Part shown: positions 4,106-35,349 of the stretch, piece after piece
Numbering within the stretch: the stretch's first letter is position 1
Layout of the letters: every line of letters begins with the position of its first letter
Virus record (IMG/VR): IMGVR_UViG_3300009506_000009
Location: 1 to 64,000 of that record
Length of the DNA stretch: 64,000 bases
Strand: one strand, 5' to 3'
DNA from: a virus
The notes under the pieces: model-generated
Seen by the model: only the letters and a program-made list of their open reading frames with translations
Databases searched by the model: none
What the model was told of the DNA's origin: nothing
Translations under genes and position numbers: made by a program

Positions 4106-4573
4106 CTATAGAGCAATACTACGATCCAACGCCTCAACATAGAAGGGGATCAAGTAAAAGCTAATATCATTTAACTGACCAATTGCCGCATCCCCAATGT
4201 CCGTAACATAGGCTTTGGGAGTGACACTGCTAAGCCGTGGGTCTTCCTGTAAGGAAGTGGGCAACCTTGAAACAACTTCACGAAGGTCTGCTTCAATTCC
4301 ATCATGATAGCGGATCATATAGACACAAGAGATTACCCAGGCCCATTTAATATTACCAAATGTTCTACGAGGTTGGCTAGTTCCTCCGCCAAACTCTAAC
4401 ACAATACCGTCTGTGACACCCTCATCAACGCTACCTGCCATTATTCTGTCGAAAACGGTATCAACATCGCCTATCTGACACCGCTCTTCAGAGAGACGGT
4501 CCTGGAAGGCCACAACGAATGCTTGTCTTACGGCTTCCTCGATGGTGCTATAACTTAAACCGGATACTGCCAT
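4106..4573 (-). CDS. Putative tail terminator/completion protein
   Basis: Size and position upstream of the tail tube. Confidence 0.5.
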   Translation of the reverse strand: MAVSGLSYSTIEEAVRQAFVVAFQDRLSEERCQIGDVDTVFDRIMAGSVDEGVTDGIVLEFGGGTSQPRRTFGNIKWAWVISCVYMIRYHDGIEADLREVVSRLPTSLQEDPRLSSVTPKAYVTDIGDAAIGQLNDISFYLIPFYVEALDRSIAL

Positions 4574-5274
4574 CAGCTTCTCCTCTTCAAAAACTCTTTG
4601 ATCATCAGCTTTCCCCAGTCCTCTAGCTCTTTCGCAATAAACTGGGAATCATTCTCTAAAACATAAAGTGGGTAGTCAAACTTTCCTTGACCAGCCGGGA
4701 CCAATGGGTACCAGTCCGCAGTAGGTCTCTCAGTACCATGCTTGAATAGGGCAAACCGTAGGGCATATATAGCATTACGGGTTACACTAGTGTCTGGCTT
4801 CCTCTTACTCCTGGTAGGTTTAGTTCCAACAGCTTTAAACCAGCGGGAGTCATATTTAAACCCGGAGACTTGCTTTACATCCTTGAGTTGTGTAGTCTCT
4901 CCAGGCATAGACTTATAGTACAGCGTAATCCCCTTGTCCATGGCCCACTTACGCAGGACATTGTAGGATACTTTTCGTCCAGGCTTGATGCCGGATCGGA
5001 TGGTGCGATTCGCACCACGCCTACCTTCAAATAGGACCCATTGAGGATTGTCACCTTCTTGCCACTCGTGTAAAATATTCTGTGCTGACCTGCCACTAGC
5101 ACCAACGTCAACAGTATGCCCCTTCTTGAGCACGTTTTTGAATCTCTGTTCGATTCGAATAACGTGATGGAACCCTTTACGTAGGGCCTGAGTAGAGGCA
5201 AGCTGTACTTGTTTTAACTCTTCAATGGTTTCAGGACCATTGATTAGCTGAACGTTTAACGTAACAATAGGCAT
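4573..5274 (-). CDS. Putative neck/tail-completion protein (HK97 gp10-like, basic)
   Basis: Basic composition, 'SGRSAQNI' motif and synteny. Confidence 0.45.
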   Translation of the reverse strand: MPIVTLNVQLINGPETIEELKQVQLASTQALRKGFHHVIRIEQRFKNVLKKGHTVDVGASGRSAQNILHEWQEGDNPQWVLFEGRRGANRTIRSGIKPGRKVSYNVLRKWAMDKGITLYYKSMPGETTQLKDVKQVSGFKYDSRWFKAVGTKPTRSKRKPDTSVTRNAIYALRFALFKHGTERPTADWYPLVPAGQGKFDYPLYVLENDSQFIAKELEDWGKLMIKEFLKRRS

Positions 5275-5940: not shown

Positions 5941-7245
5941 TTAGACAGTCTTGACGTTGCGGGTTACACTGATCAAGTTAGGATGTACCACACGAGGTGC
6001 CACATAGGTCTTGATGAAGTAACCGTAAGCATCCTTGGTGCGTGCTAGTTCAACGAAGTTGAACATGTTGCCAACGGACTCACCCATGTCATCGTAGAGA
6101 GATCGGATACCAAGACAACGATCAGGATTGATGTTGACAAGGACAATAATCTGCTCACCAGATGCAAGAGGAGTAATGTTGGCTTCACCAGCGGTTGCGC
6201 CCAAGTCTTCGTAGGTTGCAACGGTACCAGTGACATCACCATTGGAGTCGTAGGTCTTTGCGGCAATAATGTCAACCAACTTGAAGTCACCTGCGCCTGC
6301 GTCCTGACGGAAGATCATGTAAGCAAGAGCAGTAGCATCAGCAGTCCAGGCCAAAGTAACCTTCTGGTTAAGGGTAACAGCGGTCGCACCAACAGCGGTT
6401 CCGGCAACCTGCTCACCATCAGCGGTGACGGAGGCAATCTGCCAGTCGTAGTTTGCGGCGGCGAAGCTACCACCAGATGCAGGGGTTGCACTGGTTACAG
6501 CAGGGCTGGTGCTAGTGGACTGAGGAGCAACATAGTGAGACTCAAAGATCGGAGTATCACCGTATGCTCGCATGGTCAAACGACCTTCAAGCAGTTCAGC
6601 GTTCTGTAGAGGAAGCTGTACCTTGGTTTGTAGACCGTCAACAACCTGCTTCATTTTCATGCCCATCAAGAAAATACGAGGGTCATTACGTACACCACGA
6701 TAGTGGTTAACGTCATAAAGCATGTCGTCAAGTGCGGTTAGTGTGACCTTTGCACCTGCGAAGTCATGAACATTGGAAGGGGCCTCAGAATAAACAATAG
6801 GAAGAAGACCGGACGCCTGATAAGCATCACCAGTCCAATCGTAGTCATCTGCGGTACCGTAAAGAAGCATCCATTCCATAGCATCTGCCATACCTTCGAG
6901 GCTGTTCATAATCTCCTTTTCAAGAGCATTGATGAACTTAGCGGTAACACGCTGAGCGAACCCAGTTACCTCACCCCAAATACGGATGATCTTCATCTGA
7001 ACAGTCTTACGGGTGTATGCGCCCTTCTGGTTGGTACCAGTGGCGGACTCACCTTCGAACCAACCACTTGGGTGACTGGTCTGGACGTTGTACTCGTGGG
7101 TCTTACCTTCGGCTGGATCGATTGCGATAAGCTCGAACAATGGAGCAAGGTTCAAAAGCTCATCCTTCAATACAGGATCAAGATTCTCAGGAATAAGAGC
7201 AACGGCATCAACGCTGGTAAGGGCTTTGTTAATTTCAGTAGCCAT
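5941..7245 (-). CDS. Major capsid protein (HK97 fold) with an inserted beta-rich domain
   Basis: 434 aa after protease/scaffold; followed by a strong terminator. Confidence 0.85.
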   Translation of the reverse strand: MATEINKALTSVDAVALIPENLDPVLKDELLNLAPLFELIAIDPAEGKTHEYNVQTSHPSGWFEGESATGTNQKGAYTRKTVQMKIIRIWGEVTGFAQRVTAKFINALEKEIMNSLEGMADAMEWMLLYGTADDYDWTGDAYQASGLLPIVYSEAPSNVHDFAGAKVTLTALDDMLYDVNHYRGVRNDPRIFLMGMKMKQVVDGLQTKVQLPLQNAELLEGRLTMRAYGDTPIFESHYVAPQSTSTSPAVTSATPASGGSFAAANYDWQIASVTADGEQVAGTAVGATAVTLNQKVTLAWTADATALAYMIFRQDAGAGDFKLVDIIAAKTYDSNGDVTGTVATYEDLGATAGEANITPLASGEQIIVLVNINPDRCLGIRSLYDDMGESVGNMFNFVELARTKDAYGYFIKTYVAPRVVHPNLISVTRNVKTV

Positions 7246-17368: not shown

Positions 17369-18781
17369 ATGACTCCTCCCCACGTTTCTGCATATACAAT
17401 GTTGGGCTTTAAAACACTGCCTATTACCTACGGTAAGAAAGCATCTCCACCTCCTGAATGGACTCACACAGATAGTGAAACGCTGTGGGCTGATGCTCCC
17501 CGCCGATGTAATACCGCATTACAAGCCGGATATAATAATATGTTCCTTCTTGACCCGGACACAGACGTGGGTCAAAAGCATGTTGAGTCTTACTTATCTG
17601 CGCTAGGCATAAACCCCTGGCGCATTATTACATGGCGTGGATATACCCACTTTTGGTTGAAGACGGAAGTACCTACTAACACACAATGGAATGGTAAACT
17701 GAAAGATGGTATGGGAGATTGGCGTGGTAAAAATGGGTATGGGCTTGCCGCCCCATCATACGTTCGCATAGGTAACCAATCGGGGGTATATACTCTCCCT
17801 GGTAACAACCCACTAGAAGTACCCTTTGTTCAATGGTCTGATATCCTTCCATTGTTACAACTTGGCAAAAGTGTAAATATAGACCCTGAGTTATTGACAC
17901 TTCCAGTCCAAACTGTACGTAGATCAGTTCCTCGTTGGGCTTATGATGTTGTTAAGATTGTGAATGATATGGACGCTCCGGGAGATATAAAGCTTGGTCA
18001 CCGCTCATGGTACTCCCGATCTGAGGCCGTCTTTAGTGTAATCATGTCTGGCCTTTTAAGTGGTCGTTCCTTTCGAGAAGTACAACATTGGTTTAGTGAT
18101 TATCGAACTGAAAGCTGGTGGAAGGCATCTACTGCCAAAGCAATTGCGTACATGCGTGACGAAGCCGAACGTCCAGTGTTAGAAGAGATGTATAACTCCG
18201 CCTTTAAACTGCCGTTAAAAGATGAGCGGGTACTGCGTGCTATGATTGCAATCTTATGGTACGTTGGGGACCTGGAAGGATGTGTTGCCAATCGTGATCT
18301 GCAATTATTGGTTGCTCGTGGTCGTCATTCGGTATCATCCTCAGTAAGTCGGCTTATCAAACAAGGTTACGTTGAGTTAGTAGAGGAGTCAGAAGGTGCC
18401 AAAGCTTCCAAATACAGAATTAATCCAGATGTTGAACGATCCAAACGTACAGAAACTATTCTTGACCGAGTACATCATGAAGCATTCCGTCATGGTGGCA
18501 TCCCTGCTTCCGCTGTCACGGTCTTACAGTCCTTATCCCAACCACGAACGGTCAACGAACTGGTTCAAACAACAGACCTTAGTCAATCCGCAGTCTACTC
18601 TGCCCTCCACACCCTTAAGGACCTCGATCTTGCCGTCAAGAGCGGAAAGCATTGGGCTAAAAATGGTACGACAGTGGATCAGCTTAACTCCACGTTGGAT
18701 ACCACTACGTCGCACGCAAAGCGGAAGCATAGAATAATTGAGGAACGAAGCAGGTACTACCGTAACAGAGGGACAGCTTGA
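17369..18781 (+). CDS. Bifunctional primase-polymerase (Prim-Pol) domain with C-terminal winged HTHs
   Basis: LDPD, TxRGxxH and DWRGxxGYxxAAPS motifs. Confidence 0.8.
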   Translation: MTPPHVSAYTMLGFKTLPITYGKKASPPPEWTHTDSETLWADAPRRCNTALQAGYNNMFLLDPDTDVGQKHVESYLSALGINPWRIITWRGYTHFWLKTEVPTNTQWNGKLKDGMGDWRGKNGYGLAAPSYVRIGNQSGVYTLPGNNPLEVPFVQWSDILPLLQLGKSVNIDPELLTLPVQTVRRSVPRWAYDVVKIVNDMDAPGDIKLGHRSWYSRSEAVFSVIMSGLLSGRSFREVQHWFSDYRTESWWKASTAKAIAYMRDEAERPVLEEMYNSAFKLPLKDERVLRAMIAILWYVGDLEGCVANRDLQLLVARGRHSVSSSVSRLIKQGYVELVEESEGAKASKYRINPDVERSKRTETILDRVHHEAFRHGGIPASAVTVLQSLSQPRTVNELVQTTDLSQSAVYSALHTLKDLDLAVKSGKHWAKNGTTVDQLNSTLDTTTSHAKRKHRIIEERSRYYRNRGTA

Positions 18782-31572: not shown

Positions 31573-31632
31573 TTGACAACTAGCTTGACCTGTAGTAGAA
31601 TAGGGACAGTCGGAACTTTAATAATCGAATAG
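31573..31632 (+). promoter_or_regulatory. Sigma70-type promoter followed by a boxA-like element, heading the second RNA operon
   Basis: TTGACA-17-TAGAAT, then GAACTTTAATAATCGAATAG. Confidence 0.65.
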
Positions 31633-32696: not shown

Positions 32697-32762
32697 GAGC
32701 GCATGGCGGAATTGGCATACGCATCGAGGGGACCCGTCCAGGTTCGAGTCCTGGTGCGCTCA
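32697..32762 (+). ncRNA. tRNA-Leu-like RNA lacking the anticodon arm
   Basis: Perfect acceptor, Leu-type D-arm and T-arm; only 15 nt between D and T arms. Confidence 0.75.
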
Positions 32763-32876: not shown

Positions 32877-32960
32877 GCCTCATTGCTGGAATTGGCATAC
32901 AGGCTCGGCTAAGAACCGAGTGTCGTAACAGACGTATAGGTTCGACTCCTATATGGGGCA
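32877..32960 (+). tRNA. tRNA-Leu(AAG)
   Basis: CTCGG-CT-AAG-AA-CCGAG; long variable arm. Confidence 0.88.
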
Positions 32961-33077
32961 CACTGAGTTTCATCAGTTCTCAGGCAACAAAGACTGAAGT
33001 GGTCCAGCCATGACTGCCTATCGACGGGTAGGTGTACGTTACAGCACACAGCATCGACGGATGGTGTGGGATTACGT

Positions 33078-33142
33078 TCGGACAGTGGTGTAATTGGAAG
33101 CATGCCAGATGTGGTAGGAAAGGTTCGAGTCCTTCTGTCTGA
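33078..33142 (+). ncRNA. tRNA-like RNA with a truncated anticodon arm
   Basis: Acceptor CGGACAG/CTGTCTG, D-loop AATTGGAA, mini arm CCA-GATG-TGG, T-loop TTCGAGT. Confidence 0.6.
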
Positions 33143-35139: not shown

Positions 35140-35344
35140 ATTGACCAGAGAACTCGTCGCTGTACGGCAGTGCCGTATAGAGGAACTTCAGGACTCCACT
35201 GCTAGAGGAAGGAGGCTAACGCCGATTGCACTTCCGAGGGAGCAAGCCAAACAGACCTAGCTGGAAAGCAGGGCAATGATGGTCGGGTTGGTGCATAGGT
35301 AGATGACGAGATAGAACAGAATCCTGGGTAAGCTCAGTCAATCT
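35138..35344 (+). ncRNA. rnpB: Minimal RNase P RNA (catalytic domain, about 207 nt)
   Basis: P1-P8 and P15 pair; GAGGAA-CTTCAGGA / ACAGAA-TCCTGGGT P4; GGAGCAAG; AGATGAC. Confidence 0.88.
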
Positions 35345-35349
35345 TTCAC

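Follow-up and report, generated by a model that had tools for sequence, protein, structure and literature searches.

Complete removal of the anticodon arm from the tRNA-Leu of Aquifex aeolicus leaves an RNA that is still leucylated, with an unchanged kcat and an affinity about 2.5-fold weaker (PMC2377443). Editing in this tRNA depends on the anticodon arm. A73 is essential, as is the D/T tertiary core, and substitutions of A73 carry a 45-143-fold cost (PMC2377443). The tRNA-like domain of transfer-messenger RNA (tmRNA) is processed and aminoacylated like a tRNA and stands off the normal decoding path (PMC3985003). Among host enzymes that attack tRNAs, retron-Eco7 and Septu cut the variable loop of class-II tRNA-Tyr, and phage tRNAs counter them, for which "decoy or supplement" is raised as a possibility (PMC13096335). 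A review of non-canonical tRNAs mentions neither phages nor tRNAs lacking the anticodon arm (PMC7609411). No description of phage tRNA genes without an anticodon arm was found in the full-text literature searched, a limited collection that leaves novelty unproven; the "anticodon-less tRNA" of a 2026 review is a nuclease cleavage product and not a gene. Here we describe such a gene, a tRNA-Leu body of 66 nucleotides (nt) without an anticodon stem-loop, at 32697-32762 (+ strand) of the window, i.e. the 64,000 nt at positions 1 to 64,000 of the IMG/VR virus record IMGVR_UViG_3300009506_000009. The window covers the initial 64 kb of a metagenome-assembled viral contig of 98.9 kb (about 68% complete, about 45% GC) from marine sediment. 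With moderate confidence, the element is read as a functional, non-decoding derivative of a class-II tRNA-Leu that belongs to a widespread, virus-enriched class lacking exactly the anticodon stem-loop. As a class, arm-less phage tRNA genes (minis) are recurrent, virus-enriched and, it appears, undescribed.

Anatomy of the arm-less tRNA-Leu gene

The 66-nt element was delineated from its sequence, from matches to the Rfam tRNA model and to a model termed R1, and from fold energies. The acceptor stem, GAGCGCA/TGCGCTC (32697-32703 / 32755-32761, +), is paired 7/7 by Watson-Crick pairs, and its 5' strand is followed by a TG spacer and by a D-arm (32706-32722, +), in which a 3-bp stem, GCG/CGC (32706-08 and 32720-22), encloses GAATTGGCATA. 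A 15-nt linker, ATCGAGGGGACCCGT, with a probable variable hairpin (32723-32737, +) leads into the T-arm, CCAGG-TTCGAGT-CCTGG, with its 5-bp stem (32738-32754, +), and the discriminator A73 is found at 32762 (+). CCA is not encoded after the element. Each of the 15 stem pairs is of the Watson-Crick type, and none of the core positions is damaged, with U8, A14, A15 and G18G19 all present and the T at 32737 sitting at U48. Pair 3:70 is G:C, and the 66 nt contain no coding part. The anatomy in a preliminary description of this DNA (perfect acceptor, Leu-type D-arm, perfect T-arm and A73 within 66 nt) was thus matched base for base. An att-site remnant was ruled out, as both acceptor strands and the D-arm are present.

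The 15-nt interior reads A-T-CGAGGGGACCCG-T. It looks like position 26, position 44, a bulged 4-bp hairpin with a GGA loop, and U48, and it aligns to the variable arms of the four resident tRNA-Leu genes, for example to CGGGTAAAACCGT of Leu-CAA. Read as position 26, variable hairpin and U48, the interior leaves the 17-nt anticodon stem-loop alone as the missing part. The hairpin formed by the 12-nt CGAGGGGACCCG, CG(A)GG-GGA-CCCG, is weak, with four pairs and a bulge, and contributes -1.4 kcal/mol. No stem of at least 3 bp with a 7-nt loop is possible anywhere in the interior, which bears out the earlier description of the RNA as non-decoding.

The match to the Rfam tRNA family (RF00005) spans exactly 32697-32762 and reaches 37.4 bits against a gathering score of 29 (E-value 1.3e-6 over 301 nt and 9.6e-5 over 21.5 kb), and the alignment shows a deletion across the anticodon arm; the match needs permissive filters, the element being skipped by the Rfam default filters. 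No Rfam family except tRNA matched the element, and it was not called by ARAGORN in the window run. A scan of the window for closed acceptor and T-arm modules returned it as the sole module with a Leu-type D-arm that is too short inside for an anticodon arm. Model R1 gave 69.1 bits for the element and 38-49 bits for true tRNA-Leu genes, but R1 was built from 13 sequences including the 66-nt element and its 69.1 bits are partly by construction. Thermodynamic folding was undistinctive (z = -0.62), and the tRNA-like fold with a small variable hairpin (-22.6 kcal/mol) lies 1.6 kcal/mol above the minimum free energy of -24.2 kcal/mol, a gap common for tRNAs. The support for the element is therefore comparative and not energetic.

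The D-loop is identical to that of tRNA-Leu(AAG), located 115 nt downstream. The acceptor and T stems differ strongly from those of every resident Leu gene in the alignment, so the element is not a fresh copy of one of them. A recently dead tRNA-Leu has to be considered at this point, that is, a redundant fifth isoacceptor (e.g. CAG/GAG) that lost its hairpin in one deletion, for instance by replication slippage across the stem. Further damage would still be to come, and the gene would serve no purpose of its own. This explanation is possible, though we consider it unlikely. In its favor, the tRNAs TAG, AAG, TAA and CAA of the phage already decode all six Leu codons (ARAGORN). It fits poorly with the 15 stem pairs and tertiary partners, which are intact despite the strong divergence from the resident Leu genes, and with the exactness of the loss, by which position 26 and, as it seems, the variable region were kept.

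Arm-less tRNA genes in viral contigs

IMG/VR was scanned for a Leu-type D-loop followed by a T-arm within 10-24 nt, a spacing too short for an anticodon arm. The pattern fixed the D-loop, the T-loop and the short spacing, and the acceptor stem and T-stem were not required. Thirty-seven contigs were matched, 25 of which close with a 7/7 acceptor and a 5/5 T-stem at lengths of 58-70 nt; together with the window element these 25 form 11 sequence families. None of the Leu-type interiors permits even a 3-bp stem with a 7-nt loop, and the variable hairpin is absent from some minis, such as L029. Two features that were not forced by the pattern were observed throughout or nearly so. The base before the T-stem is U (U48, the partner of A15 in the Leu-type Levitt pair) in 11/11 Leu-type families, and the discriminator is A73 in 10/11. 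CCA is encoded in two Leu-type minis, L029 and L041.

An alignment of 13 minis showed pairing in 97.4% of stem cells, compared to 38-47% in slid controls. All seven acceptor pairs change on both sides in this alignment, and RNAalifold recovers the same three helices de novo. Minis L018 and L021/L044 have the same interior junction sequence, which indicates descent from one arm-less ancestor. They differ by compensatory double changes at acceptor pairs 5:65 and 7:63 and D-stem pair 11:25 and by one G-U-preserving change in the T-stem, with zero broken pairs. The compensatory changes within this family show that selection acted after loss of the arm. It is the one informative family, as the other multi-member families are nearly identical in sequence. 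In the preliminary description the intact stems were taken to argue against random decay. For the class this argument holds, given the covariation, the RNAalifold helices and the compensatory changes; for the single copy in the window, a very recent deletion would look the same as the intact 15/15 pairs. That the architecture is under selection elsewhere nevertheless counts against a dead gene.

A separate group of seven contigs (L012, L019, L023, L025, L028, L038 and L047) has a Leu-type D-loop and T-arm and an interior with GAGGAAGG followed by TACCT. No closing acceptor stem is present at the expected offset, and the group may be part of a larger RNA.

In a control scan of IMG/VR the same short spacing was combined with the commonest class-I D-arm. 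This resulted in 81 contigs (L052-L132), of which 59 are closed (acceptor ≥6/7 and an intact T-stem) and represent 28 families. The commonest class-I mini is 58 nt long, equal to a 75-nt tRNA minus 17 nt, and the linkers are about 8 nt, e.g. CTTGGGTC. C48, the partner of G15, is present in 28/28 class-I families and the tertiary core is kept, so that the tertiary 15:48 pair is retained in 39/39 families when both types are counted. The discriminator varies among the class-I families (A in 10, G in 8, C in 6 and U in 4), and G3:U70 was found in 0/39 families. Most class-I synthetases require the anticodon, and it is unlikely that the class-I minis are charged efficiently. Because minis of this type exist with mixed discriminators, a function shared by the Leu-type and class-I minis is probably independent of aminoacylation. 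This tempers the preliminary description, which centred on leucyl-tRNA synthetase, even though the Leu identity set is strikingly complete in the Leu-type members.

The survey also bears on an assembly artefact, i.e. a mis-joined or collapsed tRNA-Leu, which is a natural concern for a metagenome-assembled contig. Such an artefact is hardly credible. With 7/7 pairs between its acceptor strands, the element must have both ends from a single gene; beyond the D-loop the element has no match to other tRNAs of the contig; and more than 80 independent contigs from other samples have the same architecture.

Distribution in cellular genomes and gene context

The Leu-type pattern was also run against one genome for each of 185,579 prokaryotic species. 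Among the 32 matches, 13 were unusable due to masked N runs, 14 were not closed, and two retain the anticodon arm and are without the variable arm instead. Three of the 32 remain as candidates, two of them still with remnants of the anticodon loop. Cellular genomes thus almost lack the architecture although tRNA pseudogenes arise in them as well, and this too speaks against a dead gene. The only clean cellular mini was found in L391, a metagenome-assembled genome of Dehalococcoidales (CAZMKF010000003.1), at 4572-4640 on the reverse strand of the locus. It has 69 nt, a 7/7 acceptor, a hairpin with a GCAA tetraloop in the interior and an encoded ACCA, and it may lie in a prophage.

Many viral minis are the only tRNA-like gene of their locus. 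In three Leu-type families the minis are situated upstream of genes for a Sak4-like annealase and a helicase, within early or replication modules, and near a few families only generic replication genes recur (Sak4-like annealase, helicase, YopX). Two mini-bearing loci were searched against cultured phages and gave no match.

The gene context is informative with regard to another explanation, in which the tRNA shape is a cis-acting processing signal that recruits RNase P and the 3' enzymes ("tRNA punctuation", as in mitochondria and mascRNA) and the mini RNA is a by-product. For RNase P, RNase Z and the CCA-adding enzyme, the acceptor/T-arm helix together with the elbow is sufficient, and these are the conserved parts of the minis. 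A processing signal would also explain why class-I minis are kept with any discriminator, and some stand-alone minis, such as L062 and L079, lie tightly between same-strand open reading frames (ORFs), at 10-50 nt on both sides. However, such tight embedding was found in only 4/39 families, with no consistent operon-embedded position. A processing signal has no need for the Leu-specific A15:U48, for A73 in 10/11 families or for an encoded CCA. In the window, moreover, the tRNAs of the array already give cleavage sites every few hundred bases, so that an extra one seems redundant. Overall, this explanation is considered improbable.

Other arm-less elements in the phage and in its relative

The module scan of the window revealed a second tRNA-shaped element without an anticodon at 33079-33142 (+), with an Rfam tRNA score of 30.9 bits (E 5.7e-5) and an R1 score of 30.9 bits. 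Its 7-bp acceptor is CGGACAG/CTGTCTG, its D-loop, TAATTGGAAG, is class-II-like, the T-stem has 4 bp and the discriminator is A73. A 3-bp stub with a 4-nt loop, CCA-GATG-TGG, replaces the anticodon arm. A third tRNA-like element of 68 nt was found by the same scan at 27870-27937 (+), with 28.2 bits, just below the Rfam gathering score. A 5-bp hairpin with a 3-4-nt loop, CCGGA-GAG(T)-TCCGG, stands at the place of the anticodon arm, and 6/7 acceptor pairs are formed. The three arm-less elements of the phage have no stem sequences in common. The presence of several other irregular tRNA-like elements in the array is in favor of a dead gene, and the occurrence of two more arm-less designs of unrelated sequence in one phage speaks against it.

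The terminase of the phage has only about 23% identity to that of any cultured phage. The relative L008 (IMGVR_UViG_3300028883_000060), with a terminase 68% identical, has a syntenic array (Trp ... Tyr, tmRNA, Leu-TAG, Phe, Pro), from which the whole Pro-mini-Leu-mini2-Pro block is absent; closer terminase relatives, at 71-73% identity, exist (P0002-P0006). A complete tRNA-Leu at this locus in close relatives had been named in the preliminary description as the sign of a recent deletion or an assembly error. L008 has neither a complete tRNA-Leu nor a mini there and is neutral in this respect.

L008 carries arm-less elements of its own, detected by the module scan: a class-I body of 62 nt with a 13-nt unstructured linker (17925-17986) and an acceptor/T-arm module of 59 nt with an encoded CCA at its end (21490-21548). 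As these stand elsewhere in L008, which lacks the locus itself, the arm-less design is recurrent in the clade and individual copies turn over. At 21552-21627 of L008, a tRNA-Leu(TAG) of 76 nt with a Leu-type D-loop and a 4-nt variable region scores 27.5 bits (Rfam). This class-I-like Leu tRNA is comparable to the type I tRNA-Leu of Streptomyces (PMC6614811). Fast turnover of the array, seen in the missing block and in the shortened variable region of the L008 Leu-TAG, is in line with a dead gene.

Homologues of the copy in the window were searched in several ways. The 1-kb region and the 66 nt gave generic tRNA matches only in megablast and blastn searches of 50,697 phage records. An exact 37-mer over the junction was absent from IMG/VR, and a tmRNA-anchored pattern scan for relatives of this copy returned the L008 contig only. 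Through the upstream 364-aa protein, relatives were found among distant jumbo phages, in which the element is absent.

The tRNA array of the phage

The 66-nt element is part of a + strand array at 22.5-42.8 kb of the window, in which 36 tRNAs and a tmRNA were called by ARAGORN, the tmRNA sitting 630 nt upstream of the element. The intact tRNA-Leu(AAG) at 32877-32961 (+; ARAGORN and alignment), with the D-loop GGAATTGGCATAC, has a mini element on either side. A promoter-like sequence, TTGACA-17-TAGAAT, matching 11/12 positions in a consensus scan only, was observed upstream of tRNA-Tyr at 31573-31601 (+). As no terminator-like site was found by consensus scan on the + strand from there to 34000, the mini is probably co-transcribed with its neighbors in a Tyr-tmRNA-Leu-Pro-mini-Leu-mini2-Pro-Phe operon. 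Just past the window end, at 64244-64618 of the contig, a 465-aa ORF of the PolyA_pol/CCA-adding nucleotidyltransferase family was identified (PF01743, 75.7 bits). The presence of a CCA-adding-type enzyme agrees with the tRNA genes of the phage that are without an encoded CCA.

The anticodon AAG of the tRNA-Leu at 32877-32961 (+) places an A at position 34. A34 is unusual in bacterial-type tRNAs except Arg-ACG, and in this tRNA it may be deaminated to inosine or may restrict reading to CUU.

Several other RNAs were observed in the array. At 35140-35346 (+) a stretch of 207 nt partially matches the model of bacterial RNase P RNA class A (42.9 bits, E 1.8e-10), reaching both ends of its 367 positions, and may represent a minimal RNase P RNA encoded by the phage. 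At 26978-27096 (+) the tRNA model matches 119 nt (48 bits) that ARAGORN does not call; the element is conserved at equal length in L008 (18219-18337, 53.9 bits) and probably represents a tRNA interrupted by about 45 nt of insert or intron. The closed acceptor/T-arm modules at 24004-24080 and 26506-26580 (+; 77 and 75 nt, 28.8 and 35.7 bits) are paralogues; the two have irregular interiors with the common motifs AAACCGTAA and GGAnGAAAAT and are not called as tRNAs.

Charging and possible function

The 66-nt element very probably folds and is processed like a tRNA, judging from its sequence. By analogy with the arm-deleted A. aeolicus tRNA-Leu, and considering its A73, A15:U48, U8/A14, G18G19 and Leu D-loop, it is also probably leucylated. 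The mini would be transcribed within the phage tRNA operon, after which RNase P and 3' trimming enzymes would generate its ends and a CCA-adding-type enzyme, either from the host or from the phage itself, would supply CCA. Since the D/T-loop partners and A15:U48 are kept, its expected fold is the L-shaped core of a tRNA with the top half. Apparently retaining all known determinants of bacterial leucyl-tRNA synthetase (LeuRS), it would be leucylated by the host without reading a codon. It could then act as a tRNA-body ligand or decoy, occupying a host factor that recognizes the elbow, the variable region or the acceptor end; a candidate target is a tRNA-directed defence enzyme or a tRNA sensor. 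This ligand or decoy role is a guess, which we favor over a dedicated aminoacyl-donor or SmpB role. A bolder version would see "headless" phage tRNAs, matured and in the Leu type aminoacylated, as uncleavable or sacrificial stand-ins against tRNA-directed immunity or sensing, and thus as a new class of RNA counter-defence. This is speculative and rather doubtful; if true, the phage combines at least three headless tRNAs with a tmRNA of its own, with a minimal RNase P RNA and with a CCA-adding enzyme.

The preliminary description had proposed that a chargeable but non-decoding RNA serves as a decoy, as an aminoacyl donor for non-ribosomal transfer or as an EF-Tu or SmpB ligand. No direct support was obtained for these downstream roles. 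A dedicated leucine carrier off the ribosome, serving an L/F-transferase, a Fem-type transferase or a cyclodipeptide synthase, or an SmpB partner entering stalled ribosomes, could be expected from the apparently full LeuRS identity set together with the charging precedent. L/F-transferase recognizes the acceptor stem and not the anticodon (PMC4105747), and the phage invests in trans-translation through the tmRNA of its own upstream of the element. Genes for L/F-transferase, FemAB, SmpB or a class-Ia synthetase were, however, not found in the available 68% of the genome, and in the other 38 families the minis have no such transferase or SmpB gene linked to them. The G3:U70 alanine identity of tmRNA is absent, and the class-I minis cannot have this role. 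A leucine carrier or SmpB partner is therefore regarded as quite improbable.

Several observations weigh against the reading of the element as a functional, non-decoding tRNA-Leu derivative. The 39 families have no conserved partner protein beside their minis. For the 66-nt copy in the window, the phage records and IMG/VR gave no homologue, which also favors a dead gene, and L008 is without the locus. With all six Leu codons already covered, a fifth copy could be redundant and decaying. The mixed class-I discriminators and the lack of G3:U70 weaken the importance of leucylation. The covariation between families could partly come from independent origins in different tRNA genes, an objection from which the comparison within the single family of L018 and L021/L044 is free. 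In the retron-Eco7 system, finally, an anticodon change in the rescuing phage tRNA abolished rescue (PMC11555353), so that a pure-decoy mechanism is without precedent there.

tRNA finders discard arm-less genes because they have no anticodon, which makes these genes invisible in phage annotation. At least 39 sequence families keep the whole tRNA tertiary core, and compensatory evolution was found in the one testable family. If the minis are functional, they represent a natural version of the "minimalist tRNA" used by biochemists for mapping synthetase recognition, and imply that a tRNA body with no part in codon reading is useful to phages. This would bear on how phages handle tRNA-targeting defences and on the extent to which host translation is remodelled. 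What the Leu-type members predict is an RNA of about 69 nt that is charged with leucine but does not enter the ribosome. Should they be mere processing signals or short-lived debris, the survey would still explain to annotators the frequent sub-threshold tRNA matches.

Comparison with known systems

Leu-type acceptor and D-arms as in the minis are also present in phage RNAs that have an insert at the anticodon arm (SPP1, L014 and L026), and these carry 25-67 nt extra where the mini has nothing. In the Bacillus phage SPP1 (NC_004166) an unannotated RNA with a tRNA-Leu scaffold was observed at 6647-6756 (+; R1 27.9 bits), with a 7-bp acceptor, a Leu D-arm, an insert of about 55 nt, a non-canonical T-loop, TGCAAAT, and U73. 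It lies between gene 9 and gene 11 and overlaps the antisense "gene 10", for which the record flags a conceptual-translation conflict; it is a longer relative and not a mini. Similar Leu-scaffold elements of about 84-100 nt occur in L014 (4048-4143) and, as four copies in one locus, in L026 (5276-5375, 4997-5093, 4619-4716 and 552-635), alongside minis or in their place. A mini and a long form are 200 nt apart in L014. Neither the SPP1 RNA nor the long forms of L014 and L026 were called by ARAGORN, except for one of the latter that was called with a 4-nt "anticodon".

The tRNA-Tyr of T5 (against retron-Eco7) and of T6 (against Septu) are, as is envisaged for the mini, phage tRNA bodies that neutralize host enzymes attacking tRNAs (PMC11555353, PMC13096335). 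They are complete and decoding, whereas the mini cannot supplement translation.

YrlA Y-RNA (RF02553, PMC4201824), mascRNA (RF01684) and the pseudo-tRNA "tRNA-Other" of Bacillus cereus (PMC3399842) are small stable RNAs in which the tRNA elbow is kept; they are substrates of tRNA enzymes and act outside translation. The "anticodon" side of YrlA runs into the Ro-binding stem, whereas mascRNA and tRNA-Other keep a stem similar to the anticodon arm. None of the three has the Leu identity set or the exact excision of the anticodon arm found in the mini, and identity of the mini with YrlA was ruled out by topology.

The tRNA-like domain of tmRNA (RF00023) resembles the mini as a natural acceptor/T-arm module without an anticodon. 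It receives alanine via G3:U70, has no true D-stem, carries an mRNA-like domain and has SmpB in place of the anticodon arm, whereas in the mini the Leu D-arm is complete and both G3:U70 and a coding part are missing.

An E. coli "minimalist" tRNA-Leu with an engineered anticodon-arm deletion was reportedly made by Larkin et al. in 2002 (cited in PMC2377443). The engineered ΔAC-arm tRNA-Leu of A. aeolicus has the same parts as the mini, namely the acceptor, Leu D-arm, T-arm and A73, and a variable arm that is probable in the mini, without an anticodon stem-loop (PMC2377443). The ΔAC-arm tRNA-Leu is a laboratory construct, whereas the mini is a natural gene of a phage operon, known from sequence and one of many.

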